Shown here: positions 383 through 27,210 of the stretch, one piece after another | How positions within the stretch are numbered: position 1 is the first letter of the stretch | Layout: every line of letters begins with the position of its first letter | Source: an uncultured Methanosarcinales archaeon | Lineage (GTDB): Archaea; Nanobdellota; Nanobdellia; Woesearchaeales; CALCXY01 | DNA length: 33,744 bases | Direction of reading: 5' to 3' | Assembly: GCA_964385185.1 (NCBI GenBank) | Contig: CAYLOA010000013.1 | Span: forward strand, 1-33,744 | The notes under the pieces: model-generated | Seen by the model: only the letters and a program-made list of their open reading frames with translations | Database searches by the model: none | What the model was told of the DNA's origin: nothing | Position numbers and translations under genes: made by a program

Positions 383-646
383 CTATGCCCCTGCTTTTAG
401 ACAACATCTTTGTCCTTCAGTTGAACATGTAAATGTTGGATGTGGAGTTGCAAAGTCAACTGCGTCGCCTTCACCGCAAGAGTCTGCACATAAGGTATTT
501 GAACCGAATGAGCCACATTCATTAGACTTTCGACTAAAGATGTCTACTCTCCCAATAAAGATTACTGATAGTACAACGAGTACTAGAAGAGCGATGGCAG
601 CTACTATAATAACATTAATAGAAATGCCTTGTCCTTTTTTATCCAT
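383..646 (-). CDS. Small type IV pilin-like protein, class III signal peptide, six-Cys C-terminal domain
   Basis: MDKKG/QGISINVIIVAAIALLVLVVL, then C-x8-C-x3-C-x16-C-x6-CC. GAGGTGA Shine-Dalgarno at 651-657. Confidence 0.85.
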   Translation of the reverse strand: MDKKGQGISINVIIVAAIALLVLVVLSVIFIGRVDIFSRKSNECGSFGSNTLCADSCGEGDAVDFATPHPTFTCSTEGQRCCLKAGA

Positions 647-2778: not shown

Positions 2779-2794
2779 TTTATCTATTTAAACT

Positions 2795-3426: not shown

Positions 3427-3448
3427 GGTATTTTGTTCTTATATTGTA

Positions 3449-7519: not shown

Positions 7520-8062
7520 CTATATAACATCTCTGCATACTTGTAGTGTTACTTTCATTATGCCTGCACGGGTTTGGACAGGGGAGAATTTAGATTCTAT
7601 CTCTTGGCCGGCACATGCTTTGTCATAATCAGGATCAGAAGCCATCTGTATTATTCCTCTTCCTGGATCACATGCCTTATTTTTTATGATACAGGCTTCA
7701 AATCTGAAATTTCTGTTGGATTGTACCAATGTGGCGTCAAATATTTCTTGGATCTTTTCTTGGGCATAGTCACAGGAGTTGGTGAGTCCAGGGGGACAAT
7801 TATTGATCTCAGGAGATTGTCCTAAAGGCGTTTGGACGCAATCCTTCAATAGGTCTTGAATTCGTATATCTCCGCATTGTGTGGTGAATAACAAAACTGA
7901 GTTCTTTAGGTTTGCAGCGAGAACGGTATCAGCATATGATTGTTTTATAGTAGATTGTGGTTTTAGCAATACGAATCGAACCACGAACAGCATTCCTAGA
8001 ATCATCAGTATCACTACAATAGCCAATCCCATGATTTCAAACTGTCCTCTTTTTCTAGCCAT
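7520..8062 (-). CDS. Class III signal peptide (pilin-like) protein
   Basis: MARKRG/QFEIMGLAIVVILMILGMLFVV; several Cys; 8-bp overlap with the upstream gene. Confidence 0.82.
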   Translation of the reverse strand: MARKRGQFEIMGLAIVVILMILGMLFVVRFVLLKPQSTIKQSYADTVLAANLKNSVLLFTTQCGDIRIQDLLKDCVQTPLGQSPEINNCPPGLTNSCDYAQEKIQEIFDATLVQSNRNFRFEACIIKNKACDPGRGIIQMASDPDYDKACAGQEIESKFSPVQTRAGIMKVTLQVCRDVI

Positions 8063-8540
8063 ATGATTTCACCAGTAATTGTGCAAACTTATATCTGTCT
8101 TCGATGGGATTATAGATAGTAACGGGGACGGTTATGGTTGATATAAATAATGAATCTAGTTTGGGATTTGAGTATAGTGGAAATAGATCTGACCCTGAGC
8201 TATCTATGTCTAATTGTTCTAGAGTAACCTCGGAAAAGCCAAACGTATCTAGATAGAATTCTTTTGTCGATGAACTGGTCATTGCTCTGATAAAAGCATT
8301 TACTTTTAATTCATCAAAACAATTATCTGTTTGGATATTTCGAAAAGTACATTGTAATTCGGGAAGAAATGCTGCCTTTTGAGCAAGAGCAATGGCTTTG
8401 AGGTCTGCATTTCTTTCTGCATCTCTTGATATGGAAGTTTTTTGTATTTTTGTATAAAAACTGAAACCAAAAACTAACAAGAAAAAGAAAATGATCAATA
8501 CGGCGATCGTCTCTGTCATTTTAATTTGAGCCTTATTCAT
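8055..8540 (-). CDS. Class III signal peptide (pilin-like) protein
   Basis: MNKA/QIKMTETIAVLIIFFFLLVFGFSFY; TAATG stop/start overlap at 8540. Confidence 0.82.
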   Translation of the reverse strand: MNKAQIKMTETIAVLIIFFFLLVFGFSFYTKIQKTSISRDAERNADLKAIALAQKAAFLPELQCTFRNIQTDNCFDELKVNAFIRAMTSSSTKEFYLDTFGFSEVTLEQLDIDSSGSDLFPLYSNPKLDSLFISTITVPVTIYNPIEDRYKFAQLLVKSYG

Positions 8541-9628
8541 TAGTACATGCCCTCACAACTTGAGACTGTTTGAAGGGCTTCATTTTTTCTATTTAATCCT
8601 GCACCTCCATAGGCTGCATTGTTCAAATCTATGAAATCTTGTTTATCTCCCTCTTTGAGACCGTCAGAGAGTATATCTGTAACGGTCTGGTCCATATCAT
8701 CTAAAATTTGGAGTGATTCATCATAGGGCGTTTGACAACTTAGAAATGAAGCTAATAATCCCTCTGTTCTTTCTTTGTAAACATCCGTTACAAACTGCAT
8801 CTTATGGAGGATTCTTTCTGTCCCGCATCGATACATTTCAGGATTCTCTGCAAAAATAGCAGCATATAATAATGATTTTTCAAGAAACGGTAGCGTTGTA
8901 GGATCTGTACTCCAGGAGTTGCCCTCTTTTTGATAGAATGAAATTAATCTATCATTGGGAGATATTTTAATAGCTGTTACAAATGCGTCACCCATTGATT
9001 GAAGATTTTTTGGAATTTCCCTGCTCAGATCGAATCCATCAAATCCGATTATTTTTACTTTGTAATTATTCAAATCTTGTATATTAGGTAGATCATTTTT
9101 AGCAACTAACTCTTTGTTGAACACTAATTCTTCTGAATCGTCAATTTTCATCAATCTTGGAGGGAGTTCAGCAAAAATGTCTGAGACCAAATCTTCATTG
9201 TTAGCATCTTCCAAAATAATGTATCGCACTTCAGGAGAGGTAATTAAAACCATATTGGATACTCTGTACGGCATGCTCCAGTCATTCGTCCATGCTAGCA
9301 TTCTAATGCCTTTTACCAAATCAGGGGCAAACATGACTTTATCACCATAGGGCACTTGGGTATCTGAAAGTGAATAGGTGCAAGAGCATGTTTCTGTGCA
9401 TCTAAATCCTAGGTTGAGATTTGGAACATTTATGACTTGGATGGTTCCTCGTGAGACTTCAGCACCTGTTGAGATGGCATCGATATCATTCAATACTGTG
9501 GCTGCAATTTTGCTTCTTGAAAACTTGGTTTGAGTGTTAATTACATTAGCAAAAAAGACTAAAATAAGAGCGCCTGCTATTAAGACAAAAATCCAATTAA
9601 ATTGCATAGAAATTTGAGCTTTTTTCAT
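8540..9628 (-). CDS. Class III signal peptide (pilin-like) protein, about 362 aa
   Basis: MKKA/QISMQFNWIFVLIAGALILVFF. ATG at 9628 lies 1 nt after the upstream stop and is preferred over GTG 9646. Confidence 0.82.
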   Translation of the reverse strand: MKKAQISMQFNWIFVLIAGALILVFFANVINTQTKFSRSKIAATVLNDIDAISTGAEVSRGTIQVINVPNLNLGFRCTETCSCTYSLSDTQVPYGDKVMFAPDLVKGIRMLAWTNDWSMPYRVSNMVLITSPEVRYIILEDANNEDLVSDIFAELPPRLMKIDDSEELVFNKELVAKNDLPNIQDLNNYKVKIIGFDGFDLSREIPKNLQSMGDAFVTAIKISPNDRLISFYQKEGNSWSTDPTTLPFLEKSLLYAAIFAENPEMYRCGTERILHKMQFVTDVYKERTEGLLASFLSCQTPYDESLQILDDMDQTVTDILSDGLKEGDKQDFIDLNNAAYGGAGLNRKNEALQTVSSCEGMY

Positions 9629-9629
9629 C

Positions 9630-10157
9630 CTAAGATGGCCACTCACTTATTCGTGTTCTGTCTCCTGCCCCTTCTAGTCTTAATTTTGCTTTGCCGTCTG
9701 ATGTCGGTATGCAGAGGAATCCATCAGATCCTAGGTCAATATTACCTACATCTATGGTCACTTCAGCTCCTGGGATGAGAAATACATTATTCTGTGTTCC
9801 TGTGGTCCAAAAATTACAAATTAAGGCATTGTAGTCATCAGATGTGTCGTCGCAGATTGCTGTCTGCGCAGGAGTTAAACCTGCATGGTCTTGGACATCT
9901 AAGTCTATAAAACATATTTCTTTGAATTTTGAAGGGACGGTAATAACTTTTTGTTTCACATCTTGAGATGAAGCGGTAGACTTTATGGATGTCTTTAGGT
10001 CTGTTCGTAATTCAATTTCTGCTACTTGATCTGCTCGGTTAATGAAATCTCCAATTGCTCGGTATCCATAGAGGAGGACGAGAGAGAATATGATTGCTGC
10101 CATGACATAGATGAATATCTGTCCCATGATTTGTCCTTTTTTGTATTTTTTTACCAT
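9630..10157 (-). CDS. Class III signal peptide (pilin-like) protein
   Basis: MVKKYKKG/QIMGQIFIYVMAAIIFSLVLLYGY; 7-bp overlap with the end of the giant gene. Confidence 0.82.
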   Translation of the reverse strand: MVKKYKKGQIMGQIFIYVMAAIIFSLVLLYGYRAIGDFINRADQVAEIELRTDLKTSIKSTASSQDVKQKVITVPSKFKEICFIDLDVQDHAGLTPAQTAICDDTSDDYNALICNFWTTGTQNNVFLIPGAEVTIDVGNIDLGSDGFLCIPTSDGKAKLRLEGAGDRTRISEWPS

Positions 10158-13100
10158 TTTTTTCGTGCTCTCGCTGCTGTTTGCTTTGAGATAATTTTAT
10201 TCTTAACGAGTCTGTCTAAAGATTTTTTAGCATTTGCTTTTGAAATCTTTTTTGATTGGACCGCATGGTGGATAATATCAGTATGTGTTGTCTTTTTGGT
10301 ATGAGGCGCCATACTTTCTAGGGATGATGATAATTTAGATGCTGATAGGGTAGACGATCTACCAATCTTTCTAAGTTCATCGATTACAGTAGGGTGATCT
10401 GATCCTATGTGCTTCTTTATCTTTGGAGATACCTTATCTGCAGATTCCCATCGTGTTAATCCATCTAATCTCGAAAAGACATCAGATAATTTATGTGTTT
10501 TTGGTGCCTTAATTGGAATCCAACCTTTACCGTCATCAGGAGTGGATGATTTTGGAGGGAGGCCAAAGAAATTGGAAGGTGCTTTAGACCTTTCTTTCAT
10601 ATATTGAGCCCTTCTTGCACGCATTTGTTGTGCTAACGTATCCAGCATCTGGGTGCCACGTGTAGGTGATTTTGGAGCGGGTTTGGCTATTGGAGCCATC
10701 TTCTTCATCGGTTTCTTTGGAGGGAGAGGTTTAGGTCCTGATCCTTTATTTTTATTGTAATAATAGTAAGCAGCATATCCTCCTCCGCCTAGTATTAACA
10801 GTATAAGGATTACCATTATAATGGTGAAGAATGAACTCGGATGGGAATCTGGATCAGTAGGGTCTGTTCCTTCATCGATTTCTACTTTGTCATCGTATCC
10901 ATCATCATCTGTATCGGGTAATCTTGGATTGGTATCTTCTCTAAACTCATTGAGGTTGGTAAGACCATCTTCATCAAGGTCTTGAGAAGCGTCTGATGAA
11001 TCTAGAGGGTCTAGATTGTGTCTTATCTCGAAATCATCATTCATACTGTCATTATCGTCATCAAGGTCACATGCATCTCCTTCTTTATCTCCATCTGTGT
11101 CTTGTTGGTCATTGTTAGCATCATCCGGACAGTTATCCACATTATTTAGGACGTCATCTCCATCTCTATCTAGGTCCTCTTCTGCTGAACACAGTCCTTG
11201 AATGCAGGAGAATCGTGTTTTACAATCATCTTCTGCGTTACATTTTAGGTTTACATCACATTTCAGTGCACATGATTTTCCACAATCGATGTCTGTCTCT
11301 GTTCCTGGGTCAAACTTTCTATTGAAACAGGTGCCTGTCTCTACACAGATTCCTGCTGAATTTGAACATTCAGTTGATTTACAGTCTGCATTTGCATGAC
11401 AATCTTCTCCTAGATCACATTTATTACAGTTTCCACCACAATCTACATCTGTTTCTTGGCCATTTTCAATTCTGTCATCACATGATGAAGCCCTACAGAT
11501 ATTTGCAACACAAGAGTGGGATGAACAATCATCTGCATCATCACAGGTTCTTCCTGTTGAGCATAATCTGCACGATCCTCCGCAATCTGTGTCGGTCTCA
11601 TCTCCGTCCCTAATATTATTATTGCATGAAACTGAGTTGGTTAGTAGGTTTATTGAAAATCCGTCTGTATCCTTTGGTTGAGAGGATAAGTCAGCTGTAT
11701 TTTTTGCTCTCACGGAGAGTCTATAGTCTTTTGACTCATTAAGATCTACTCCTGTGACAAATCCTCTGAATTCTCCAAAGAAAGATCCATTTGAAGATTG
11801 TTCAGCTGATCTTGTTGTGTTTAGGACCACTACTGACCCAAATTTCTCTTTGACTACGATTTCGAATTCATTCACAGCTGATTCATCATCCTTTGCCTCG
11901 ACATCTACAAATACTTTTTCGGTGAATGGGGATACTTCTGAGTTGGATGATGAGGCGTTTGGTATTTTATCAGATAGCCGAGTAATTCTTGGAGCTGTTG
12001 AATCTATAATAAAGGTTAATGATCTTGAAGTCTCCTCTCCTGAAAAAGCACAGGATATTGAGAATGTGTGTGCCCCTGAGTCTGTATCTGGTAGCGTTGC
12101 AGTATGATGCAATCCATCTCTCAACATTCCTGAGAATGGTAGGGATGCATTTGTGTAGAAACACTCAGCCCCTTTATTTGTGGTTACATTAAGTACAGGA
12201 GGGGGTGTTGTAATTACAGGAGGGGTGTTAATCCTTGTGATTTGGAGTGGAATCTCAAGATCGAAGTTTACCGGAACAGATGTATTCAACTTTGAGATGA
12301 GTTCTGCTTTGTTTCTACATCTAATATTGAATGTGTGTAGTTTTGTAGCTAAGTCCACGAATGGAGTTGCTACTTCATGATCATTCTTGAAGGAAGATTC
12401 TACTATTAAGAGATCTTCTAGACTTCCAGAGGTAATTTCGGTAGCGTTTATGGTGAAATCGTCTTCAAACTGTTGCAGGTTTATAGCATTTACACCATTA
12501 AAGATATGTCTCATCTCATCAAACTCTGCAAATTCTTCATCAAACTTACAAATTGTTTTGTCGTCTGTGGTGAGTGATAAGGTTGTTCTCTCAGGAGGTT
12601 CTACGACTGGATTTGGTGTAGCTTTCAAGTTGGAAATTCTTGGAGTAGAGAGATCAACGGTGAGTGGGAAAGAAGCCCCTTCAACTTTGTCTGTTTCTGC
12701 GTCAATACATTTGACAAATAGTGTGGCTGTTGTTTGGACGAAGAGATCTCTTATAGTATGTGTGGATCTTCCTGTTGTATTGAATTTTTTCATATTTGCC
12801 AATTGGACATTCTTAGTTGAGAATGAACACTCGGAGGATCTGGAAGTGACCATGGTTACGTTCAATTTGTTTACGGATGAGAAACCGTAAGATGGCTCTG
12901 TTAAGACGAATTGGAGATCTGAGAAGAATACTGCAAATCGGAATTCTTGTTCGTTAAATTTATTGCCAATAAGATCTGTTGCGTTTATTGAAAATGTATA
13001 TGTGGACTCTTTAAGTTTTGCAAATGGACGATAATTAAATTCTTTATTGTCTAGAGATGCATTAAATAAGGTTACTTGGATAGGTTCATTTGTTGTTTCA

Positions 13101-16100
13101 TCGATTAGGATTGGTTTTAATGAGGTAGGTTCAACAGGTTCGTTAAATTGAAGTCTCAATAATGGTCTAGAGTCTTCTACAACGGATAGATCTCCTCCTG
13201 TTATATCTAGTACGACATCTTGTAGCAATTCTGATAGTGGGGAGGCATCGATAGATCGTGCAGTAATTGTTGCAACTGGGCCAATAGAGTCTAAGATGAT
13301 ATTCCCTTCTGCTTTTCCTTCTTTTCCAAGGTCATTAATTGCTGTAATGTTTATGAGATTATCACCTTCAAATAAATTTAGGAAATCGAATGAAAATGAA
13401 TAGATGTTTGGATTTCCGGATGTTTCTAGCTTGACACTTGTGGTTTGGTCATTAATTGATATGGTGTCTTGGAGTACTGCTTTTGTTGTAATTATTCCTT
13501 CAATAGTTATTGGAGATGCGTCAACCACTGCATTTGCAAAAGGAGTTGGGGAAGTTACAATGATTACTGGCGTGGTAGTGTCAATAGTAAATTTATTTGC
13601 TACTGGTGTTGATCTTCCTTGGGTATCTACACCATTCAGATGGATTGTGTAATTTCCATCAACTCTTAGTGGAGTGAATAATGTGAGTGTGATTAGTCCT
13701 CTTGCAGCATCTGAGGTTGTTGTTGAGGGAATTACTCCATTTGGTCCAGTGATATGGAGGGAAGAGGCGATGAAGTCAATTCCTACATCTGATGTCAGTA
13801 TTCCTTGTGCCGTCCTAATTTCTCCTAGTATACTATTCTTTCTTGGATTGTTAATTTCAGCAAATGGCCCATCTGAAGAGAAGAAAATATCATGAGATGA
13901 GCTGTTTACATTTCCTGCTAGGTCTGTTGCTCTAATTTCTACTGCATTTGGTCCTCTACTGAGAGGGACATTTTCTATTGCATAGGAACCGTTTGATGTG
14001 GTTGCATTTGATTGAAATCCATTTACGAATATTTGTATGGATGTATTTTCCTCAGCAGATCCAGCCATTAAGATGGATGAGTTAATGACTGTTCTGTTAC
14101 TTGGAATGTCTAATGTAGGTTGAGGAGTGATGTAATCTGCTTTGAATTCGATTGTGATGGTTCCTTTTTGCAGATTTTGCCCTTTGTCCTCACAACTTAT
14201 TTCGAATTTGTAGTTTGTTCCATCTATTAAGAGACCTGAATCGGTATCAATTGTAGAAATTCTATGTCTGAATTCTCCTAGTTCTTGGGTTGAGGACATT
14301 ACTTGTTGCTGTACGCCCCCTCCAATGAAATCTGCTTTACATTCTGTGTCGAGTGAGTAGGTGGTTACTTCTAATAGTTCAGCAAAGTCATTATCTGAAT
14401 TATTTCTGAAGAACGTATTTGGTGCAATTTGTTGGATAACTACTGGGAAGTTTGGATTTATAGTAAGTTTAATATCCTTTATTTCTGATAACTTTCCAGC
14501 TTTGTCTTCACACTGGACACTCTTGCTGATTATTCCTACGCCTGATGTAAATGATTCTGTTAAGAGTTTTTGGCTGAAGTTTAAGTCATCAAACCCTAAT
14601 GTTTTTTGGTTTAGAGTTAATGGTGAATCTCCAAATCTACATCTCACTCCACCAGAATTATCGGATGCTTTGATGTCTAAGGTGATTGTTGCGATGTCTT
14701 GTTGATCCACCTTAAAGACTAAGAAGTGATCTTCCTCTAAGAATATTCCATCCACCGGTCTTATGTCTGTGATAATTGGGATATCATCTGGAGCTGCTCT
14801 TTCAATGAACATATTGATGAGTTTTTGTTCTCCTACATTTCCTAATGCATCTTTACATTCAATAGTGATTGGGTTGGATCCTAAGTTTAGCTGGAAGTCT
14901 GGAGTGTGTGAAAACTCTGTTTGTGAAGTTGAGGACATTCTTTCTGTTGATGGCGTTTGTCCTGGGATGTAACTTAATGTGCACTCTGTGGCAGCTTCAT
15001 CCGTTCTCAATGTGAAGGTTGGTCTTCTTTGGATGGATGCGTTTGTTAATTGGGATGTCATCTCTATTGTTGGTCCTTTGGTATCACTGATTACTATGAC
15101 TGAGAAATTATTGAGATTTCCTGCATTATCTAGAATTTCTAACAGTAGATTGTTGGTTACTTCTTGTCCTCGTTGTTCGTTTATGTTTATATTTGAGAGT
15201 GTGAATGTTCTTATGATGTCGTTAATAGTTGCGTCTGTGCTTCCAAGAGTAATTTTCTGAATTGGGTTTTCTGAATAGGTTCCTGAAATATTCACTACCT
15301 TACTATTCGTTCTGAATTGGAGTAGTTCTTGAAGTGCAGGAGTTACTGAAGCAGAGGTTATATCAGCCCCTACTGTGTCTCGTGTGAATACTTGTGTTGA
15401 AACGTTTGTATTTCTTGCACCATCAAAGGCTGTAACAAGAATAGTATTTTGACCTTCTGTTAGGTTAATTGGGATTCTCAATCCATTATTTGATTCTATG
15501 CCATTTCCATCTGGAATCGGGACACTTACTGGATCTTTGCCACCTGTTACTAATAATCTGGCCATATGTTCATCTGAGAATGAAACGAGTAGTGTGACAA
15601 GTTCAGTGTTTGTGGTGTCGGTTGCAGTTTCATCAAGACCAATAATTTCTACTTTTGGATTGGTTGTGTCTACTATGAAGTTTAGGGTTCGGACGTCTGG
15701 AGATGAACCTGTTGTTCTTTCAACAATGAGGTCTAGGGCATTTGTTCCTTCTTGGACTTTATCGAGTAGAGTTGTCGTGTGGGAGAATATTCTATTGTTT
15801 GTTGTTGTGAAAATGATTGGATTTCTGTTTAACTCAGCTTTTGTGATGGTCACTTCTTCTGCATATTCAAATGTGATAGTAGGTAAGGCTGTTGGTATTT
15901 GTTCTAGATGGATCGGGGCTGATGATAGGAAAGTTGGAGTAGAGGTATCAACAAAGAACGTGTGATGAGTCGCATGCGTATTCCCTGGAAGGTCTTGGAT
16001 CACTAATGTGATGGTGTGGAGAGTATTATCTGATAGTGGGGTGGTGAGTACTTGACTGACATCAATTGATTTTTGACCGTTGAGTAGTCGAGTTACCAGG

Positions 16101-19100: not shown

Positions 19101-22100
19101 ACGGTGGTGGAGGATTGTCTGTTTAATGCTGAAAGTGAAAACTGGCAAGATTCTACACCGTTGATAAAGGATTTTTTGTTTGTTTTTGCGAACAATGTTG
19201 GAAGTGTATCTGCAGTGGTGAACACATTGCTTTGTTTCAAGGTAATCTTGTTGTTTTGTGTGATAATACCTGCATCTGCAATTTCTATTGGAAAGTCTAC
19301 ATCAATTTGGTTTTGTAAGACAAACCCTTGACCGGATGAGGCCGTTTTTGATGTTTTATCTACACAATCTATGTATATGTGGAAGACTCCATTGAATCCA
19401 AAGTCATGGTCTATGGAATGCACCCTTGAGAATGTTTCTCCTGATGAAAACTCTAAGCTTGAGAATGGGATGGTTGGTGGGGAAGGCTCTTGTAATGTTG
19501 AAAATCTACAGATGGAATCTAGATTTGTTTGTATATTAATTGTGTTTGTAGTGGTGTCTGTTACGATTGTTCCTTTTCCAAGTGATGATGCTTCTATAAT
19601 CAGTGGACGAGAGTCTATTAAAAGGTCATTTCTTGTTACTTTCTCTTGATCATAATCATTGGTACATTTTACAAAGTATTCTACTGTTTTTACCGTATTA
19701 TCAAACGCATCTCCTAGATTGTAGATTACTTGATGTAATGTTTTTGCTGCATTTTGAGGACTGAATGAGCCAATTGAATTTCCTTCTCTGAATTGGTGGA
19801 GTGTACAGACGGAAGGTTGACTCGTTTGGATTTGGATGGTCGTTAATTGTGTGCTTGTTCCACCAAACTCTGGCTGGATGATTTCGATTTGAGGTCCTTC
19901 TTTGATGACAGTTATATTTTTATCGGTGATTCCTAGGTTTCCCGCTTGATCTTGTACTTCACATCGGAAGGTAATATTTGTATTTTTATTTCCTATTTGC
20001 GAAGCTAAGTTAATCGGTTGTGAGTTGATTTCCAAGAATCCTTGGCTGTTTACTGAAGATAATATTCTTTGATTTTGTGTGCAACCGGCATCTTGGTCTG
20101 TACAGGAGCAGGATAACTGGAAGATATCTTCATTTGTGAATTTATCTGCAATAAGTGGAGGTGCTTGGATTATTATTTGAGCACTTGGAGGGGTTAAATC
20201 AACGAATACTGATGTTGTTTGCGTGATTGAGTTTTTGGCTTGATCTATGGCTTTTACTTCAATCTGTCTTTCTCCTTCACTTGATGCAAGAATTCCTAGT
20301 GGAATTGATGCTACCAATGTTCCTGAACGTCTCTCTGGTGTTAATGTGAATGGTATAGGTGTAGTGTTCGTAATATCAATTCCAGTTACTTCTGCTGAAA
20401 CGAGGTTGTCTTCTGAAATATTTACTTCTAAGATAATTGTATCTTGGGAGATTGCTGGAGAGGATGAGAGGTTAATTTTTGGAGGGGTTGCATCTATTAC
20501 GAATGTGTGTTCAGGGAAAACTCCTTCTAATGATTGTGAGATGACTCCTCCTACATTTGAGATGATTTTAGCTGCTGTTATTGCAACTGTGTATGAACCA
20601 TCCGGTAGAGTAGAAGGGGTGGAGGCTGTAAAGACATGTGGTGCTAATGATGAGGTGAATGGAAGGAGATCTAATGCAAGGTTAGTTCCTGTTAGAGTGA
20701 CTGATGTTAGGTTGATAATTTCTCCTGTAGTGAATTCAATGAGTAATTCTGGATTAGGAGATCTGATAAATCCTTTTGGAGAGATCGTTGGTGTGGAAGG
20801 TACGTCTACATCTATAGTAAAAGACCAATCAAATTCATTAAAATTGTTTGCTTCATCGGTGGCGTTTACCTTGATATTGTATACCCCTTCTGGTAAACCT
20901 TCTTGGACGTTGATGTTGTGTATTAACAGAACTCCCGATTGAGTAGGTTGTTGGTTAGGAATAACTACTACGCCATCAATATCCATAAATGTAGAGACAA
21001 TTGGAGACTTGTTTTGTACTTCTACTACTATGATTGAATTGTTCTCTGAGATAATGGATTTATCTCTTGGGATTTCATTAAAGAAAAATGGTGGATTTTG
21101 TTCTAGAACAATGATGTGTGGATCTGAAAATCTTCCTAGGTTTCCAAGTTCATCTTCAGAAGCTGCAAAGAAAGCATTTACTCCATCCTCTAAAGTTACG
21201 GTTGTGCCAAAGAAACCTGGAGGTTCTGCGGTATTCATTACAAAAATAGGAAGGCCTTGTAGAGTAGGATCATCTTCAAATGGAGGGGATATGGTGACTC
21301 GCTTAATAGCGTTTGATAATACTTGTACTCCGACAATCTCATAATTTTTTCCAGAGAATCTTCTTGGTTGTGTAAAGGTCATAAATCTATCTGGAGAGAT
21401 TGATGAAGATGGTCTGTCAAACGTGTTGAAAGGATCTCGGATGGTGAAGATATCCGTTTTTAGGGAGAGTAATATTTCTTCTCCTCGTAGATTTTGGCCA
21501 TCGTCGTCCATAAAGGGTTTAAAGTATGATGGGGGGGTCGTGGTTCGTAGAGGGATTACTTTTGCTGAGATAAATTCATCAATCGATGTTCCTAGAGCTT
21601 GCCTTAATTGGATACCTACATCTGGTTTTTGTTCAAAGTCAACTCCTGAGACAAAAAAGGAGGGGATATTTGTGAATTGGAGTTGGTCTGTTAATGTAAA
21701 GAATGTTGGTGGAATTTTTGGTCCAATTGTGTCAATTACTATTGCTCGACCATTTGCGATTACATTTGAATCTACATTATTTTGATCTTTGGAACTTATG
21801 GTAAACGTTGCAGTAGCTTTGTCTAAGTTGGTAAAGAATCCTGTGCCCGGAATAGTTAATGTGGCTGTGAATCTTTGTTTGTTGGAATCTGTTTGAGTCG
21901 TTTGTAGAGGAACTGTTCTCGTTATTCCTGTTACATCTAGGAAGGTAAGAGCGAATGCTTGTATACTGCTCATAGGTTCAGATGTATTTATTTTAACGGT
22001 GTATTGCTTGACACCTCCTCCTGGATGGATGAGGGTGACTGCGTCAATACCATCATGTACAGAGATATTAATTTCTGCAGGGATGGTATCTGAGATGGTA

Positions 22101-25100
22101 AAGAATGCTTCTTTAGTACTTGGATTTTGAAGGCCATCTTTTGCAGCGAATCTCGCTCGATAGTTGCCTACTTCAAGACAATCTGCTACTTGTGCTGAAA
22201 ATACATTTCCTGTTATTTTTTTGAGAGGTATTTCTCTTGTAACTGCACATCCTGTTGTGGATAGAGCCGTATCGATGTTTTCGATACGAACTGTTGTAGA
22301 TGTAGGGATGATGGTATTTGTAAACTTAGGATCTGAAATGGTTGCAACGAGTCGGATTGATTCTTTGTATTCACCACTTCCTGCAGTATCTATGTTAGCT
22401 TGAGATAACACTTCTATTCTTTCTTCATCTTGGTTAACGACTTGAGGATCTGCAATAATTGGACCTAATTGATCATTTGCTATTTGAAATGAAAGTGGAG
22501 GAGAAATACTATTTTTTCCGTTTATAGCAGAGAGGTCAGTTGCGGTTAATGAAAATGATTGTATACTGTTTGACTGTAGTATTACTGGTGCAAAAGTCCA
22601 GATGCCCCTTCCTGCTGTATCTACAAAAATTCCCTCTCGATTGTCTAGTTTAACCTTTACTCTTCCAGAGGGCTCAATCCAGGTTCCTGAGACTCGTATA
22701 CTATTTTGGGTCGTTACAAAGGGATTTACTGTATCAATGTTATGAGGAACCCCATCGATTGAGAGATCTATAAGCTGAGGAATATTATTATCTACATTCA
22801 CGAAAATACATTCAGGATTTTCATAATTATTGTTAGTTCCGTCTGATCCCGCAAAGCACATAAATCCTGATTCCTCTAACCGAGGGAGCTTTGTGACATC
22901 TCCTGGTGCAAAGTTCTGTTCTTGGTTATTGGCATCAATAAAACATCCTTGTGTTGCTGTTCCAAAACAGAATTTAACATCTGTTGTAAGGCAGCCTAGA
23001 GGACCTAAGTTGTTGAAATTTCCAGTATCGTCATCACATGCGAAAGAGAGGATTGTATTTCCCAGGTAGACGTCATCTACGTCTAGAGGGGTAAATCCAC
23101 CTAAGACTTCAACTAATGGAGTAACTTCTGGAGGGGTTGTATCCACTGAGAAAATTGCTGTTGCTGTATCTACAACTGCTCCATTATCTCTACATATGGT
23201 ATCTACTGTATGGAAACCGTCTGTTAAGGGGATAGTTGATCTGTATATATAGTCAGTTCCAGGTTCTGCATTCGGATTTATGATTTGTTGGAATGATGCC
23301 TCTTGTGAGGTTCCCAGTCTAAACTTACAATCATAGGGTGCTTTTCCGAATTGATCGTTTAACGTCGTTATTTGGATTACTGTGGGTGAAGTGGTTACGA
23401 TTTGGTCAAATGGTGTGATCGTGTTAATCTGTTTGTTTTGATCAATTTCTACTGATCTGGAAAAACTTACAGGATTAAGTGCATTATCTGTACATGTTAA
23501 GGCAATTCTGTATACTCCGTCGGCGAGTTCTTCTAGGTCTTGATTGTCTAGGGAGAATGGAGTTCCTGGAGTGATCGTTACTCCATTGAGTGGAAATCCT
23601 GGAAGGTCTTCAATGGTGGATGTGATTTTTTCAACGTTGATGTTGCATACTACAAATTCGGAGGAGGTAATGGTTGATGCTATGTCTGATGTTGAGCTGT
23701 CTTCCAGGTTATTTGTGACTTCGATAGGGGATATTGTTATTATAGGGGAGATGGTATCTATTAATGCCTTTTTGGTCTTAATTGGTTCCACATTTCGGTA
23801 TATGTCTTGAGCAAAGTAGGAAATAGTAAAGTCGCCTTCTTGACCTTCTGGAGGAGTTAGTATTGTAGAGAATTCAAATTTGTTATTTTCTTTTTGGACT
23901 ATGATTCCTTGATTTGGATCAGGGGTGCAAGATTCTTCAGTGGTTGTGCACATAAATAGAGTTATTGATTCTACGTTGCCGTAGGATATATCTTCTATTT
24001 CAAATGCAAGTACATTTTCTGATCCCGCTGAGAAAAATGCTGGGTGTAGTAATTTGGTTACAGGAGCTACTGTGTCTCGTCTGCAGGGTAGAAGGCCCGT
24101 TCCTACACAATCTTGGATGCCATCATCATCTCCATCTTTTATACAAGCAGTTCCTGTCCATTCGCAGACACCGAGTTGGCATTTATCTTGAGATGGGATG
24201 AATGTTTTTGATGAGAGATCATCACCTGGCACTATAAATGGTGATGCTCCTTGGCAGGCTGTCTCTGTTTGGTAATCTTCACACAATGTTGGAGCAGATT
24301 CTGTAGCTGATGGTGATGCACATGCATTACATGCAGAAGCTTCTTCATTTGCAAAACAAGCACCTAGTTTTAAACAAGTATTATCTGTACATTGATCCAA
24401 TCCTTGGCATTCGTCACAATCATCTGTACTTTTATCTGAAGCTGAGAAACAGATTCCTCTTCCTAGCTCTGAATTCAGACCAATATTTTCTTCCCACTGA
24501 CAATTCGTTGGGCCACCTAATCCACAATTGTCTTTTTCACATGCCCCTTCACTTTTGTAGTCAAAACAAGTCATTGAGGGTGAACAAGATATACATCTAT
24601 CTACCGTTGTTGGCAAAGGATTGAGTGAAAATGGTTGATTTGGTTGGGTATCATGTCCGTCTGCATCTTCTATATCATAATAACAGAAATTTCTGTCTAG
24701 TAATGTGCCATCCCCTCCATTACAGGAATTTTCTTTGTAATACATACCTAATATGTTTGGAAAGGCAACGTCGATATTTTTACATACAGTTGTGCCTATA
24801 CATGCAGCTTCATCATTTTCTCCATTATCTATACATACTGCGCCAGGAGCTAAAGAAGTTTCACAATTATTTTCAGTTAATTTATTGTTTGTATCGCATG
24901 ATCCTACTATAATTTTTTTATCGTTGGTGTCCCTTAAGCAGAAATCTCCTTTGTTACATTGTAGTTCGCATACTGCATCTCCTGCAAATGTGGATAAAGG
25001 TGATGAGGATATCGGTGAGCCGCCATTCAATGCTGTGTCAGCTAAGTTTGCTTCTAATGTGTAGCTAAACGTTTTGTCGAATTCTGAAGAGGTGTCTATA

Positions 25101-26962
25101 TATGATGTTGTTGATGGGCCTAATTCTGCTAATCTATCTCCTTTACCACTCCCTTCTGATCGGAATAATACATATTTTGTAATAGGGCAGCCAAATGAAT
25201 CCCAATTTACGGTGAGTTGAGGGGAACATTGAAGATGATCTATTGATGTTAGGGTTAGAGTTGGGAATTCTGTTTTACAGTTACCGTCAAGCGGTGTGAG
25301 TTCAATGTCCTTTTCTATGGTAATTCCTGGAGTGTTTGGGACTACTATTCCTGATTCTTTGAATTTTGCAAATCCTGGAGTTGATGCTTCTACTTCTAGG
25401 GTGTATGTTATACCTGTACTTACTGCTCTTCTATACTTGAAGATAGGATCTCCAGTTGTAATATCTAGTGTATTCGTTTCAGCAGGGAAGGATAAACCTA
25501 ACGCTTTATTGACGAATCTTAATGTTGCTTGGATAGATTCTTGAGTATTTGCGTTTACTACTTTACCGGTGAAGGTTAATTCTGAGCAGGGTGAACCTTG
25601 GAGGAATGAATCAAACCCTGGAAGTTGGCAACAGAATAACTGGTCATCATTTGGTGAATCGGTATCTACTATTGTATTTCCACATGAACAAAATGATTCC
25701 GTGTATGTTGTTGAACGACCTGTTGTTACTGTTGAACTGTCGAAAGATGCTGTTGGTTGTCCTACTTGACATGCTGGCATAAAGCAAGCAGTTGAGCAAC
25801 ATACTTGACCGGTTGTTCCTGAGAAAAGATTGTTATTAATCGGTATTCCTCCTCCATCGAAACATTGTTGATTTCCATATGAGTCACAGGAGTTTCCTGC
25901 TGGACAGGAGCACTCATTATTTTCAGTCGTGTCAGAGGGGTTTAGGCAACAGAGATCTGATGTGTCTATAGATCCATCTCCGTCATTATCGATTCCATCA
26001 CTACATTGGGAAAGTCCTTGGTTATCACATACTCTATCGTTATTTGCATCTTGATTTTCATCACATTGGAGACAAGCTTGCGCTTGAGGTCTACATACTG
26101 TTGAACCTTGGGATGGGTTTGGACAGAAATAACATCCTGCAAGGGATGAGGAACATGATTGCTCATCTGTTAATTCTGAGCAGAATTGTGTTTGTACAAT
26201 ATTATCGCAGATATTATCATTATCGCCATCTCTTTGGTTATCTTGACATGCTGTACATGTTTGCAAACATTGTTGAGAGGATTGACAGAATGAACATCCT
26301 GATGCTAGACAGGTATTTTCTCCTGAGATATCTTCACATCTTAGTTGTGTTGGTGCTCCTTCGCATACTCCATCTTGGTTTTGATCTTCACTTTGTGGAC
26401 AGGTTGAACAATCAGGGAGGCAAGCGCCTGTTGATTTACAAAATGAACAGATGGAGGATGTACATGCTGCTTCATCTCCTGAAAAGTCTGCACAGGATTG
26501 AGTATCTGTGCCAATATCTGGACATTGAGGGAATTTCTTTGTAATGGATCCATCAGATTCTTCTGCGTAACAGAGATTGCCCCCTCTTGGAGTTCCTGTT
26601 GTAAATTTAGCGAATTCTGCACCTGAGTTGACCAGACAGAGTGATTCTATATTATTGATTGCACACTGACTTACTGCAGCTGGATCGAAACAGCATCCTA
26701 GATCACATGCAGGAAGTTCTTCACACGCATCCGTGGTAAAGAAATCTGCTAGACATTCTGCTTGATCTGCTGGATGTTGAGGGAGACCGTATTGAGGTGA
26801 TGTTGCTGGACAACATTCTATTTGAGTAATTGCGGACTCTTCACATACAGCGTCGAGAAACTCAATATTTGCACAGCAGCCAAAGTCATTCTCTGCAGCT
26901 TGCGCTGGAGGGATTAATGTGAGGAGGAATGCTACGGTTAGAAGTAAGAGGAGTTTCTTCAT
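10151..26962 (-). CDS. Giant (5,603 aa) membrane-anchored cell-surface protein, putative adhesin
   Basis: Sec signal peptide (…PPAQA/A), Cys-rich N-terminal repeats, FN3-like domain, dozens of Ig-like repeats ending D-x-T-x-P, three ETDxDCG repeats, TSP3-type Ca-binding repeats, one C-terminal TM helix and a Pro/Lys-rich tail. Uninterrupted 16.8-kb ORF with GAGGAG RBS. Confidence 0.92.
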   Translation of the reverse strand: MKKLLLLLTVAFLLTLIPPAQAAENDFGCCANIEFLDAVCEESAITQIECCPATSPQYGLPQHPADQAECLADFFTTDACEELPACDLGCCFDPAAVSQCAINNIESLCLVNSGAEFAKFTTGTPRGGNLCYAEESDGSITKKFPQCPDIGTDTQSCADFSGDEAACTSSICSFCKSTGACLPDCSTCPQSEDQNQDGVCEGAPTQLRCEDISGENTCLASGCSFCQSSQQCLQTCTACQDNQRDGDNDNICDNIVQTQFCSELTDEQSCSSSLAGCYFCPNPSQGSTVCRPQAQACLQCDENQDANNDRVCDNQGLSQCSDGIDNDGDGSIDTSDLCCLNPSDTTENNECSCPAGNSCDSYGNQQCFDGGGIPINNNLFSGTTGQVCCSTACFMPACQVGQPTASFDSSTVTTGRSTTYTESFCSCGNTIVDTDSPNDDQLFCCQLPGFDSFLQGSPCSELTFTGKVVNANTQESIQATLRFVNKALGLSFPAETNTLDITTGDPIFKYRRAVSTGITYTLEVEASTPGFAKFKESGIVVPNTPGITIEKDIELTPLDGNCKTEFPTLTLTSIDHLQCSPQLTVNWDSFGCPITKYVLFRSEGSGKGDRLAELGPSTTSYIDTSSEFDKTFSYTLEANLADTALNGGSPISSSPLSTFAGDAVCELQCNKGDFCLRDTNDKKIIVGSCDTNNKLTENNCETSLAPGAVCIDNGENDEAACIGTTVCKNIDVAFPNILGMYYKENSCNGGDGTLLDRNFCYYDIEDADGHDTQPNQPFSLNPLPTTVDRCISCSPSMTCFDYKSEGACEKDNCGLGGPTNCQWEENIGLNSELGRGICFSASDKSTDDCDECQGLDQCTDNTCLKLGACFANEEASACNACASPSATESAPTLCEDYQTETACQGASPFIVPGDDLSSKTFIPSQDKCQLGVCEWTGTACIKDGDDDGIQDCVGTGLLPCRRDTVAPVTKLLHPAFFSAGSENVLAFEIEDISYGNVESITLFMCTTTEESCTPDPNQGIIVQKENNKFEFSTILTPPEGQEGDFTISYFAQDIYRNVEPIKTKKALIDTISPIITISPIEVTNNLEDSSTSDIASTITSSEFVVCNINVEKITSTIEDLPGFPLNGVTITPGTPFSLDNQDLEELADGVYRIALTCTDNALNPVSFSRSVEIDQNKQINTITPFDQIVTTSPTVIQITTLNDQFGKAPYDCKFRLGTSQEASFQQIINPNAEPGTDYIYRSTIPLTDGFHTVDTICRDNGAVVDTATAIFSVDTTPPEVTPLVEVLGGFTPLDVDDVYLGNTILSFACDDDTGNFNNLGPLGCLTTDVKFCFGTATQGCFIDANNQEQNFAPGDVTKLPRLEESGFMCFAGSDGTNNNYENPECIFVNVDNNIPQLIDLSIDGVPHNIDTVNPFVTTQNSIRVSGTWIEPSGRVKVKLDNREGIFVDTAGRGIWTFAPVILQSNSIQSFSLTATDLSAINGKNSISPPLSFQIANDQLGPIIADPQVVNQDEERIEVLSQANIDTAGSGEYKESIRLVATISDPKFTNTIIPTSTTVRIENIDTALSTTGCAVTREIPLKKITGNVFSAQVADCLEVGNYRARFAAKDGLQNPSTKEAFFTISDTIPAEINISVHDGIDAVTLIHPGGGVKQYTVKINTSEPMSSIQAFALTFLDVTGITRTVPLQTTQTDSNKQRFTATLTIPGTGFFTNLDKATATFTISSKDQNNVDSNVIANGRAIVIDTIGPKIPPTFFTLTDQLQFTNIPSFFVSGVDFEQKPDVGIQLRQALGTSIDEFISAKVIPLRTTTPPSYFKPFMDDDGQNLRGEEILLSLKTDIFTIRDPFNTFDRPSSSISPDRFMTFTQPRRFSGKNYEIVGVQVLSNAIKRVTISPPFEDDPTLQGLPIFVMNTAEPPGFFGTTVTLEDGVNAFFAASEDELGNLGRFSDPHIIVLEQNPPFFFNEIPRDKSIISENNSIIVVEVQNKSPIVSTFMDIDGVVVIPNQQPTQSGVLLIHNINVQEGLPEGVYNIKVNATDEANNFNEFDWSFTIDVDVPSTPTISPKGFIRSPNPELLIEFTTGEIINLTSVTLTGTNLALDLLPFTSSLAPHVFTASTPSTLPDGSYTVAITAAKIISNVGGVISQSLEGVFPEHTFVIDATPPKINLSSSPAISQDTIILEVNISEDNLVSAEVTGIDITNTTPIPFTLTPERRSGTLVASIPLGILASSEGERQIEVKAIDQAKNSITQTTSVFVDLTPPSAQIIIQAPPLIADKFTNEDIFQLSCSCTDQDAGCTQNQRILSSVNSQGFLEINSQPINLASQIGNKNTNITFRCEVQDQAGNLGITDKNITVIKEGPQIEIIQPEFGGTSTQLTTIQIQTSQPSVCTLHQFREGNSIGSFSPQNAAKTLHQVIYNLGDAFDNTVKTVEYFVKCTNDYDQEKVTRNDLLIDSRPLIIEASSLGKGTIVTDTTTNTINIQTNLDSICRFSTLQEPSPPTIPFSSLEFSSGETFSRVHSIDHDFGFNGVFHIYIDCVDKTSKTASSGQGFVLQNQIDVDFPIEIADAGIITQNNKITLKQSNVFTTADTLPTLFAKTNKKSFINGVESCQFSLSALNRQSSTTVQQSLEGNRLFNIYKLPLSTPLSEGIDTIDVECRSGINKATFTVSVNVDTTPPPTPTLNTLPATANSQLSVTGFADAEFVRILVNQNPAAITKVDAGTFSTTLSLEPYTHNQQITITADAFDILENGPSTATSTQTITVDKESDTPTAINVQVDEEDVIITGQSEPQSIVRIYIAQPGLPPVLLTTANTQSNGKFNQELEGMPEGHYTLFVTTVDFLANLESLPSISKSFTIDLSPPRIIAITPNVNEQFSQGSIPIHIILEDDSDIDVSSIEIRVDGSLQSTQTGKTPTISGIRTNTVALLTETDGVHTLSVSAVDSLGQEITTSRTFTIESDAPTLISTSLNSIPLETFTVVNDSTQKLDLLFNERIDAINSELDTIQIPSSSITTEDNRIFSIQLPPLADQVSHTITIEATTSLGTTRRTFIFGVDTLSPIFDTTSITPKSQYTEIRGIASDAFPASISVDKFLSHTQVDKGRFTATTTSLNPTLTMQDQAGHSEQFTLELPEPSEDIELTVNTVPTASSLPITITGTTSPRTEVTITINNQVNSVTSDVRGEFTLNAGPAQGMQSNQNNLITVSAGEVTKRFTTLVDSSAPRVILTSPEEGDTVSTSEIEIGFEDLSDLNPGASSVKVNGLPVQFTTDKGAQTIKALIDTTPRSISVETLLTDIHGLSSTHSFSFTQADVPEINLLEDLSAYVFTKQPFITASIPEGEQVSATLTSGTGPIPLITIIPPTGDTFVFYPEIALDHATTYTLQISATKETIKKATRTKTFTTDLIPPSLQTTQIQSPTNTNTIDVLGTFVEDNPKSVTFALRTSSGAISSQGTLPIIDNTYLLQTPLSGGDQTFTLTVSITDKSGQVTTETIPIVRNTNSPSIEIKQPQAQAILSQRISNVIVESDTDTKGSILIDNVPTAAQDLLGTIESTIPISFIQEGQTTLEASATDTATNTNTVSNIVTLDTTPPSVSLVTPQLLTNSLTPTISFTLTDSSGVANVTLIIDDTFLVTRLLNGQKSIDVSQVLTTPLSDNTLHTITLVIQDLPGNTHATHHTFFVDTSTPTFLSSAPIHLEQIPTALPTITFEYAEEVTITKAELNRNPIIFTTTNNRIFSHTTTLLDKVQEGTNALDLIVERTTGSSPDVRTLNFIVDTTNPKVEIIGLDETATDTTNTELVTLLVSFSDEHMARLLVTGGKDPVSVPIPDGNGIESNNGLRIPINLTEGQNTILVTAFDGARNTNVSTQVFTRDTVGADITSASVTPALQELLQFRTNSKVVNISGTYSENPIQKITLGSTDATINDIIRTFTLSNININEQRGQEVTNNLLLEILDNAGNLNNFSVIVISDTKGPTIEMTSQLTNASIQRRPTFTLRTDEAATECTLSYIPGQTPSTERMSSTSQTEFSHTPDFQLNLGSNPITIECKDALGNVGEQKLINMFIERAAPDDIPIITDIRPVDGIFLEEDHFLVFKVDQQDIATITLDIKASDNSGGVRCRFGDSPLTLNQKTLGFDDLNFSQKLLTESFTSGVGIISKSVQCEDKAGKLSEIKDIKLTINPNFPVVIQQIAPNTFFRNNSDNDFAELLEVTTYSLDTECKADFIGGGVQQQVMSSTQELGEFRHRISTIDTDSGLLIDGTNYKFEISCEDKGQNLQKGTITIEFKADYITPQPTLDIPSNRTVINSSILMAGSAEENTSIQIFVNGFQSNATTSNGSYAIENVPLSRGPNAVEIRATDLAGNVNSSSHDIFFSSDGPFAEINNPRKNSILGEIRTAQGILTSDVGIDFIASSLHITGPNGVIPSTTTSDAARGLITLTLFTPLRVDGNYTIHLNGVDTQGRSTPVANKFTIDTTTPVIIVTSPTPFANAVVDASPITIEGIITTKAVLQDTISINDQTTSVKLETSGNPNIYSFSFDFLNLFEGDNLINITAINDLGKEGKAEGNIILDSIGPVATITARSIDASPLSELLQDVVLDITGGDLSVVEDSRPLLRLQFNEPVEPTSLKPILIDETTNEPIQVTLFNASLDNKEFNYRPFAKLKESTYTFSINATDLIGNKFNEQEFRFAVFFSDLQFVLTEPSYGFSSVNKLNVTMVTSRSSECSFSTKNVQLANMKKFNTTGRSTHTIRDLFVQTTATLFVKCIDAETDKVEGASFPLTVDLSTPRISNLKATPNPVVEPPERTTLSLTTDDKTICKFDEEFAEFDEMRHIFNGVNAINLQQFEDDFTINATEITSGSLEDLLIVESSFKNDHEVATPFVDLATKLHTFNIRCRNKAELISKLNTSVPVNFDLEIPLQITRINTPPVITTPPPVLNVTTNKGAECFYTNASLPFSGMLRDGLHHTATLPDTDSGAHTFSISCAFSGEETSRSLTFIIDSTAPRITRLSDKIPNASSSNSEVSPFTEKVFVDVEAKDDESAVNEFEIVVKEKFGSVVVLNTTRSAEQSSNGSFFGEFRGFVTGVDLNESKDYRLSVRAKNTADLSSQPKDTDGFSINLLTNSVSCNNNIRDGDETDTDCGGSCRLCSTGRTCDDADDCSSHSCVANICRASSCDDRIENGQETDVDCGGNCNKCDLGEDCHANADCKSTECSNSAGICVETGTCFNRKFDPGTETDIDCGKSCALKCDVNLKCNAEDDCKTRFSCIQGLCSAEEDLDRDGDDVLNNVDNCPDDANNDQQDTDGDKEGDACDLDDDNDSMNDDFEIRHNLDPLDSSDASQDLDEDGLTNLNEFREDTNPRLPDTDDDGYDDKVEIDEGTDPTDPDSHPSSFFTIIMVILILLILGGGGYAAYYYYNKNKGSGPKPLPPKKPMKKMAPIAKPAPKSPTRGTQMLDTLAQQMRARRAQYMKERSKAPSNFFGLPPKSSTPDDGKGWIPIKAPKTHKLSDVFSRLDGLTRWESADKVSPKIKKHIGSDHPTVIDELRKIGRSSTLSASKLSSSLESMAPHTKKTTHTDIIHHAVQSKKISKANAKKSLDRLVKNKIISKQTAARARKKW
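10843..11175 (-). repeat. Thrombospondin type 3-like Ca2+-binding DxDxDG repeats in the giant protein
   Basis: DRDGDDVLNNVDNCPDDANNDQQDTDGDKEGDACD, DDDNDSMNDDFE, DLDEDGLTNLNE, DTDDDGYDDKVE. Confidence 0.85.
11186..11627 (-). repeat. Three tandem Cys-rich ETD(T/V/I)DCG repeats in the giant protein
   Basis: CNNNIRDGDETDTDCGGSC, CDDRIENGQETDVDCGGNC, CFNRKFDPGTETDIDCGKSC, each followed by C-x5-C-x4-C. Confidence 0.85.
26024..26497 (-). repeat. Three tandem ~50-aa eight-Cys repeats near the N-terminus of the giant protein
   Basis: C..E..C....C.FC.....C...C..C....D...D..C pattern occurs three times (SCADF…DGVCE, RCEDI…DNICD, FCSEL…DRVCD). Confidence 0.8.
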
Positions 26963-27096
26963 TTTTTCTCCTCTTTCTTTAGTTTTTCTTCTATCGCTTC
27001 AGTTATGAATTGAATTAACGTTTTATTTTTGAGAAGGGCATTGAGTCTAGCTTTTTTATGTAGTTGGTCTTCTATTTCAATATTTACTCTCGTCAT
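26959..27096 (-). CDS. 45-aa ribbon-helix-helix (CopG/ParG-like) DNA-binding protein, absent from the ORF track
   Basis: Manual translation MTRVNIEIEDQLHKKARLNALLKNKTLIQFITEAIEEKLKKEEKK* shows an alternating beta strand (RVNIEI) plus two helices. Its TGA overlaps the ATG of the giant gene (ATGA). Confidence 0.85.
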   Translation of the reverse strand: MTRVNIEIEDQLHKKARLNALLKNKTLIQFITEAIEEKLKKEEKK

Positions 27097-27129
27097 TTAG
27101 GCGTTTTCTTTCTTAAATTAGGCACTATG

Positions 27130-27166
27130 CTAAGTTAGTTAACTTAGTTTATCTCGTTAACTTAGT
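27130..27166. promoter_or_regulatory. Putative RHH operator array
   Basis: GTTAACTTAGT direct repeat at 27138-27148 and 27156-27166, plus inverted repeat CTAAGTT-agtt-AACTTAG at 27130-27147, just downstream of the predicted transcription start. Confidence 0.65.
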
Positions 27167-27192
27167 AGTTTGGAGTAATTTTGTGATTTTTC

Positions 27193-27207
27193 TTTATAAA
27201 GTTTTGG
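27193..27207 (-). promoter_or_regulatory. BRE/TATA promoter of the RHH-giant protein-pilin operon
   Basis: Minus strand reads CCAAAAC-TTTATAAA; predicted transcription start about 27170. Confidence 0.6.
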
Positions 27208-27210
27208 ATT

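Follow-up and report, generated by a model that had tools for sequence, protein, structure and literature searches.

A conserved single-copy cassette of four pilin-like genes next to a giant surface protein in a Woesearchaeales genome: most likely variant minor pilins of a type IV filament

The contig CAYLOA010000013.1 (33,744 nucleotides, here C13) from an uncultured archaeon of the Woesearchaeales (assembly GCA_964385185.1; 1.30 Mb in 85 contigs, rated 100% complete) carries a unit of six open reading frames (ORFs), every one on the minus strand: a ribbon-helix-helix (RHH) regulator, a giant surface protein and four pilin-like proteins, P1 to P4. The whole C13 stretch is referred to as the window. 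An original prediction, made from the letters of the window, had proposed that this unit encodes a host-attachment apparatus; it is supported in part, and the refuting conditions it had set turned out largely in its favour. It was found that the cassette is real and conserved and that it is most likely a variant of the minor pilins of type IV filaments. The reading that we favour, at a probability of about 0.5, is that P1–P4 are a minor-pilin set that works with an anchored adhesin in a type IV filament whose motor is encoded in trans. This reading is based on the single copies and fixed order of the four genes, their class III-like leaders, the long helix in two structural models, and the presence in the genome of an ATPase/TadC-like pair and two A24 peptidases. 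Host attachment is our hypothesis for the function. The six genes and the filament ATPase are as follows.

26959..27096, minus strand: RHH-like regulator, 45 amino acids (aa); Pfam HicB at E 0.002 and ParD at E 0.016, both under the cut-off.
10151..26962, minus strand: giant, 5,603 aa, with a Sec-type leader, Cys-rich head, Ig-like stalk, conserved C-module, Asp-rich TSP3-like repeats, one C-terminal transmembrane (TM) helix and a basic tail (Pfam, profiles).
9630..10157, minus strand: P1, 175 aa, leader KKG/Q (leader scan; homology to an ATPase-adjacent gene of relatives).
8540..9628, minus strand: P2, 362 aa from ATG, leader KKA/Q (AlphaFold model: helix 2–56, beta sheet, alpha/beta insert, three-helix bundle).
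8055..8540, minus strand: P3, 161 aa, leader KA/Q, Glu at +6 (AlphaFold model: helix 3–57, alpha+beta head).
7520..8062, minus strand: P4, 180 aa, leader KRG/Q, Glu at +3, six nearly invariant Cys (alignment).
C15:8540-10834 (another contig of the genome): VirB11-type ATPase, 764 aa, the sole match of the genome to PF00437 (T2SSE) over the cut-off.

The four class III-like leaders that the original prediction had pointed out are all present, and each is followed by a hydrophobic helix. When scored by our own pattern scan, a basic-G/A/S motif was found within the first 45 residues of 91/96 P1, 143/146 P2, 102/109 P3 and 90/98 P4 aligned homologues. Gln at +1, which is the rule for EppA substrates, accompanies the motif in 74/96, 54/146, 88/109 and 90/98 of them, respectively, and Glu is found at +3 in P4 and in most P2 homologues and at +6 in P3. 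The AlphaFold models of P2 (pLDDT 95.9) and P3 (pLDDT 95.5) have a continuous N-terminal helix of ~55 residues and then a beta-rich head, and both are predicted to follow the pilin plan of a long alpha-1 helix with such a head. The pilin fold that the earlier claim implied is borne out in part: the long helix is seen in both models, and no solved pilin head was among the matches listed for the whole models. Foldseek gave no match at E 0.001 for either protein. The best Z for P2 was 10.4 for the three-helix bundle, with ~6 for a receiver-like fold at residues 131–265, in lists filled by generic helices; for P3, the best Z was 5.7, for its helix, and no pilin head was among the matches listed. 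These searches used the whole models, including the long helix, and show neither a new fold nor a difference. A sequence search of the PDB with the P2 profile returned two weak, unrelated matches. In the ESM Atlas, 30/30 matches of P1 and P4 were unnamed archaeal clusters, and the nearest named ones (0.80–0.84) were Class_IIIsignal, DUF7266, DUF7287 and DUF7288, which serve as leads only; PF23958 was not found in the source genome. P1 and P2 can be aligned over 71 N-terminal columns. The idea that P3 and P4 are full-length paralogues was rejected, as only 38 N-terminal columns align. A four-chain prediction of mature P1–P4 (P3 as partner) gave 0.70, against 0.00 and 0.00 for unrelated partners and 0.61 for a control in which P2 was replaced, and was used neither for nor against the complex. 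In one relative (G023), the P3 orthologue (L030:255-1346, minus strand) has a 185-aa Asp/Cys-rich insertion in its head, so the head tolerates added domains.

The synteny of the four genes across Woesearchaeota-like and related taxonomic orders, proposed earlier as a check, was confirmed. Each of P1–P4 has one orthologue in the source genome. P2 occurs in 39/41 near relatives, 175/301 genomes of the class and 166/226 of the best assemblies, with 1,461 representatives at E 0.001 in a 50%-clustered library; P3 occurs in 183/201 genomes, a few of the matches being weak. The gene order P1-P2-P3-P4 is kept in 78/90 loci (45/52 from the same order as the window, 24/28 from other orders and 9/10 from named relatives). 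Some of the misses stem from contig ends or the ORF filter; elsewhere, P1 seems truly absent. The named relatives found by P2 are eight Woesearchaeota records and two labelled ‘uncultured Methanosarcinales’ (L004, L007). These two genomes (0.8 and 1.4 Mb) have the same ATPase (62% identity) together with a cluster typical of Woesearchaeota, so their label is probably a misassignment.

As had been claimed, no ATPase, platform protein or peptidase was found inside the window (Pfam and NCBIfam scans of its proteins); elsewhere, the genome encodes two A24 peptidases and a single VirB11-type ATPase with a TadC-like neighbour. The best NCBIfam match of the ATPase is FlaI (E 1e-33, under the cut-off). 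The adjoining 711-aa multi-TM protein, the one TadC-like gene of the genome, appears TadC-like through a homologue only, a 606-aa protein (E 1e-33) that passes PF00482 (T2SSF). The two A24/FlaK-like peptidases lie on C27 and C81 and match PF01478 over the cut-off. A link between the cassette and such motors comes from P1. Weak P1 matches in cassette-less genomes adjoin a second ATPase, and in 10/20 such loci the P1-like gene is directly followed by the gene of a second VirB11 ATPase and by two TadC-like genes. Profile-profile comparison of P1 with this P1-like family gave a probability of 96% (E 2e-9, 80 columns), and the alignment ends in a common Gly-Ser/Gln-x-x-x-hydrophobic-Pro strand; against the same family, P2 reached 15% and P4 54% over 10 columns. 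One member of the family passes Pfam DUF7289. In one relative (G008), the second operon opens with proteins of 4,168 and 2,227 aa that match the C-module profile of the giant, a tentative assignment with so Ig-rich a profile; in another (G022), P1 is joined in frame to the anchor gene, whose basic tail leads into KKG/Q, in a single case that may be an assembly effect. The second operon is absent from the source genome, and the C15 ATPase is therefore its only motor.

In favour of a motor encoded in trans, Nanobdellati are reported to keep ATPase and platform together with the pilins scattered (PMC13705601). An earlier census notes an ATPase of nanoarchaea for which no pilins could be identified (PMC4858521). 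In relatives (L165–L184), additional complete operons for type IV filaments occur, with pilins of at least two kinds (VSPLIAT-type and QAAMEFL-type); they are absent from the source genome. At L174, L190 and L191, a paralogue of the 711-aa protein belongs to a different large cluster of class III genes, in which weakly P1- and P4-like genes also lie. In G117:C3 and G356:C2, the match to the ATPase is interrupted within a single long open frame (1,297 and 1,423 aa), suggesting an intein.

Several observations weigh against the minor-pilin reading. P1–P4 of the source genome match no Pfam or NCBIfam pilin family, and the P1 and P4 alignments gave scattered single-member family matches only. The Epd-type leader has Gln at +1 and Glu at +5 (PF04021); according to the alignments, Glu at +5 is absent from all four proteins, with Gln in its place in P1 and P2, and 0/17 candidates in the source genome matched PF04021, whereas the control did in Methanocaldococcus. 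The homology of P1 is limited to leader, helix and first strand, and the 711-aa protein has no Pfam match itself. The 90 loci used for synteny were chosen by their P2 match, and many of the genomes counted also contributed to the P3 profile, as to the others. A C15-type ATPase and a TadC-like gene were present in 50/50 genomes (the ATPase at full length in 49), of which ~20 had been chosen for lacking P2 or P3. The motor, which is kept in genomes without P2 or P3, does not need the cassette, and co-occurrence of the two was set aside as uninformative, the motor being nearly everywhere. Lastly, neither a giant head nor any orthologue of P1, P3 or P4 was found in four genomes of one family (f44; 93–99% complete, fragmented assemblies, so that the claim is one of ‘not found’), which keep motor, peptidase and short pilins. 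If this loss is real, the cassette is an accessory module that some filament assembly can do without, and the case for a universal priming role is weaker.

Under the reading that we favour, P1–P4 would be four distinct minor pilins, with the motor encoded elsewhere in the genome. An A24 peptidase would cut their leaders after G or A, and the four subunits would then assemble in a fixed ratio on the TadC-like platform into a priming or tip complex, beneath which the ATPase would add short pilins, such as the products of the genes at 73–646. The giant would not be a pilin: exported by Sec and held by its C-terminal helix, it would lift a conserved Cys-rich head beyond the S-layer on an Ig stalk of lineage-specific length (~150 nm if fully extended, by a length estimate) and stand beside the filament as adhesin or scaffold. 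In the source lineage, the RHH protein probably represses its own promoter and hence the giant-P4 unit.

It may be instead that P1–P4 are cut like pilins and stay a short membrane-anchored complex that caps no long filament, similar to the Sulfolobus bindosome or to an S-layer-associated portal or anchor that positions the giant. We consider this unlikely, although it is the alternative that survives best. A sequence search found an S-layer gene after P4 in 23/28 loci of other orders; the remaining five have a gene of 750–940 aa there, and the one that was checked matches S_layer_C. Four strictly single-copy subunits with large disulfide-rich heads and without Glu at +5 would also suit such a complex, as would the existence of genomes that keep motor and short pilins but not the cassette. 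However, S-layer adjacency was seen in 0/50 cases in the window’s own order, where many short pilin-like genes follow P4 instead, and the P1-like gene sits within ordinary ATPase-TadC operons.

The giant, the adhesin of the minor-pilin reading, has three regions defined by profiles or domain matches.

23753..24895, minus strand: Cys-rich N-module, aa 690–1070, one per locus, in same-order loci only (profile).
13196..23752, minus strand: Ig-like stalk, aa ~1070–4590, ~37 domains by length, the length-variable part (Big_13 at E 3e-26 and related families).
11663..13195, minus strand: C-module, aa 4590–5100, with weaker internal copies at aa 2273–2695 and 3885–4356 (profile).

The ORF of the giant is free of N letters. 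Its product is Cys-rich over the first 1,000 aa and has Cys and Asp-rich repeats near the end, and the TM helix at aa 5372 is followed by a basic tail of 203 aa. Conserved linkage between the cassette and a large surface protein was verified: a gene of at least 500 aa lies within 300 nt upstream of the cassette in 47/52 same-order and 19/28 other-order loci. Among the 47, all but one encode a C-terminal TM helix (46 of 47). Of 55 such tails, 53 are net basic. The N-module was found in 44/52 same-order regions versus 0/28 regions of other orders, in which the upstream neighbour is a different Cys-rich protein of 539–1,798 aa. Head and anchor are fused as one gene in 22 loci; 18 of the 19 complete ones measure 1,566–2,161 aa and one 6,042 aa. 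Elsewhere, head and anchor are two genes, the first reaching >4,800 aa. The length of 5,603 aa thus reflects a long stalk in a fused, conserved gene, the extreme size being lineage-specific; size by itself is not the novelty. Homology of the C-module beyond its own order, and to the G008 giants, is tentative, as the profile is Ig-rich (it grew from 78 to 102 sequences on iteration) and direct BLAST to other-order proteins gave just four matches (E 1e-6 to 4e-5). A second giant of the source genome (C19:10885-23403, plus strand, 4,172 aa, 348 Cys) also matches the C-module profile. The presence of cell-wall-cutting or catalytic domains in the giant was rejected, since Pfam found none in it or in 11 related large proteins.

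These features also bear on the proposal that P1–P4 are pseudopilins of a type II secretion-like piston, which would drive very large proteins with disulfide bonds across the S-layer or into an adjacent cell. Four minor subunits, one of them large (P2), recall GspH/I/J/K. Several giants are encoded in the source genome, for example that on C19, and giant Omnitrophota genes are reported behind T2SS/Tad-like loci with class III genes (10.1101/2023.11.21.568195). However, the giant carries a C-terminal anchor and, like its 11 relatives, has no catalytic domain that Pfam could find. Archaea are not known to have an outer membrane or a secretin either, and we regard the piston as very unlikely. Least probable is that the KK[G/A]Q starts are plain positive-inside signal anchors and P1–P4 uncut single-pass proteins with an envelope role unrelated to type IV filaments: a loose class III filter lets through ~40 ORFs of the source genome, including several that are clearly Sec-type, and P1–P4 have no family assignment, but the pairing of a small −1 residue with Gln at +1 is better conserved in P1, P3 and P4 (counts above) than an anchor needs, the genome has two A24 peptidases, and P1 is homologous to a type IV operon gene.

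For the minor-pilin reading, the weakest step is that the target is a host cell, which has about even odds even if the rest is right; the source archaeon is probably host-dependent. A bolder version appears quite unlikely. It holds that Woesearchaeota, Pacearchaeota and their kin have a host-contact organelle of their own, with the giant and P1–P4 as its conserved core. In it, the giant would be a molecular ruler, with a fixed Cys-rich recognition head, a stalk (almost none to ~3,500 aa) tuned to the host envelope and a basic tail in the cytoplasm by which contact is linked, via P1, to the type IV motor. If this were true, stalk length and head sequence would predict the host type for lineages without a known host. 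The way in which Woesearchaeota and Pacearchaeota make contact with their hosts has yet to be established, and for a DPANN attachment organelle observed by tomography the proteins are described as unknown (PMC11420986). In a 2026 census, the type IV filament genes of Nanobdellati are reported as scattered and of uncertain function (PMC13705601). In contrast, the pilin-like genes here form an ordered single-copy cassette in ~9/10 genomes tested. The cassette offers four defined cleavage substrates and one defined complex to reconstitute; the conserved adhesin head could be used as host bait, and a family-level natural loss is available for comparison.

The five junctions of the unit proved to be as tight as had been described: overlaps of 4 bp (RHH/giant) and 7 bp (giant/P1), a gap of 1 nt (P1/P2), and overlaps of 1 bp (P2/P3) and 8 bp (P3/P4). 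In the source genome, 185/713 same-strand neighbour pairs have gaps of −12 to +2 nt; from this rough background, the chance of five such junctions in succession is ~0.001 (hand calculation). Two candidate control sites precede the RHH gene.

27191..27210, minus strand: candidate promoter, TATA-like TTTATAAA with BRE-like CCAAAAC upstream (consensus match only), the two together at about 27207-27193, ~100 nt ahead of the RHH start.
27130..27166, no strand: candidate RHH operator, direct and inverted repeats of AAGTTAAC/TAACTT (repeat count upstream of RHH copies).

TATA-like sites are common in DNA of 37% GC, and the promoter calls are consensus matches only; a sigma-70 promoter scan was disregarded as unsuited to archaeal DNA. 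The RHH gene is real, but its place as a built-in part of the unit was not upheld. Homologues occur in 15/41 genomes at varied places, and the cluster loci scanned gave two, each ahead of other genes, so a fixed membership was rejected. In seven other loci, the gene next to RHH encodes the ATPase (one), a cluster protein (one), a Cys-rich protein (two) or something unrelated (three). A homologue precedes the ATPase in relatives G020 (as tandem copies) and G037 and a cluster gene in G039. RHH is a movable regulator with some preference for surface genes. AAGTTA or TAACTT stands one to three times upstream of RHH in 8/8 loci, the source locus included, and the 130 nt ahead of the eight RHH genes hold 17 copies versus ~2 expected (hand calculation). 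This excess points to a probable auto-operator, which likely travels with the RHH gene.

The bounds 7520..27207, given earlier for the whole unit, turned out to be too narrow, as the unit is one segment of a larger cluster. Members beyond these bounds are listed below.

27211..29349, minus strand: class III protein, 712 aa, KKG/QLTLF, conserved upstream cluster member (profile; 11 further profile matches in the source genome).
31075..33744, minus strand: Cys-rich protein, open at the contig end, with a 100-N gap at 31738-31837, conserved upstream member (profile).
383..646, minus strand: short class III protein, 87 aa, KKG/QGISINVII, candidate major pilin (kin of this gene closely follow P4 in many loci).
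73..381, minus strand: paralogue of the 87-aa protein, 102 aa.

The two upstream genes belong to conserved families of the same cluster in relatives. The KKG/QxTxF class III family has twelve matches genome-wide, including ones on C1, C4, C11, C14, C19, C24, C27 and C43. Inside the upstream part also lie a lipoprotein-like Cys-rich gene of 452 aa (29663-31021, minus strand) and an 82-aa gene without family match (29355-29603, minus strand). Many relatives have 10–12 more class III genes downstream of P4. In the source genome, these are displaced: two short ones lie 7 kb off at 73–646, as also seen in a genome of the same genus, and others are on C71 and C38. The gene after P4 has its own TATA-like site at 7502 and encodes a 1,039-aa orphan (4354-7473, minus strand), with a TolB-like propeller (E 0.002), a hydrophobic middle and a weak kinase-like C-terminus (Pkinase E 0.085), located between P4 and a PhoU-like gene. 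Between P4 and the short pilins, the cluster is also broken at 746-4357 by the genes of pyruvate kinase, a pair of genes of which one is AbrB/MazE-like, the gene of an Lrp-like regulator and an AbrB-PhoU gene.

Among known systems, bacterial minor pilins form priming complexes with a tip adhesin, such as FimU-PilVWX-PilY1, GspHIJK and ComGD-GG. The likeness is that of four co-encoded unequal minor subunits beside a large adhesin. However, no sequence or fold match to these complexes was found, and the giant, anchored in the membrane at its C-terminus, cannot ride the filament tip unless it is cut.

A literature search found no description of the cassette; the supplements of PMC13705601 and PMC4858521 were outside the search and may list these genes. 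Module 98, a set of 51 mostly unannotated protein families common to Woesearchaeota and Pacearchaeota (PMC8204110), has the same distribution and includes unannotated one-TM families with medians of 300, 200, 166 and 171 aa, so that some are similar in size to the cassette proteins. In the available text of that source, no statement on pilins, synteny or function was found, and the word ‘pili’ does not occur. The attachment organelle of Nanobdellota YN1 is a host-contact structure with a 6–7 nm filament, its proteins given as unknown (PMC11420986); it belongs to a different lineage, and nothing in the present analysis links the cassette genes to it.

Euryarchaeal clade 2 with trans-encoded pilins, as outlined in PMC4858521, is closer: the ATPase/TadC module lies apart from the pilin locus, and an S-layer-like gene is a possible extra component. 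The P1-like family matches DUF7289 here as well, but no counterpart was found for P2–P4 or the giant, and P1–P4 have no PilA/Pilin_N match. The Epd pilus (system 1) of Methanococcus maripaludis (PMC4858521, PMC13705601) resembles the cluster in having numerous class III proteins, five or more minor pilins, a locus with large putative adhesins, major pilins that are short, and an ATPase accompanied by TadC. Leaders with Gln at +1 are a further shared feature. The cassette differs in that its leaders, with Gln common at +1, have no Glu at +5; the window locus has neither peptidase nor motor (the peptidases being on C27 and C81); the source genome has one 711-aa TadC-like gene, not two; and the large protein consists of an Ig stalk anchored at the C-terminus, with no DUF2341 match. 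Although it is not filed as Epd, because two tested features of system 1 fail (the +5 Glu/PF04021 leader; EppA and two TadC in the locus), the cassette would work like system 1.

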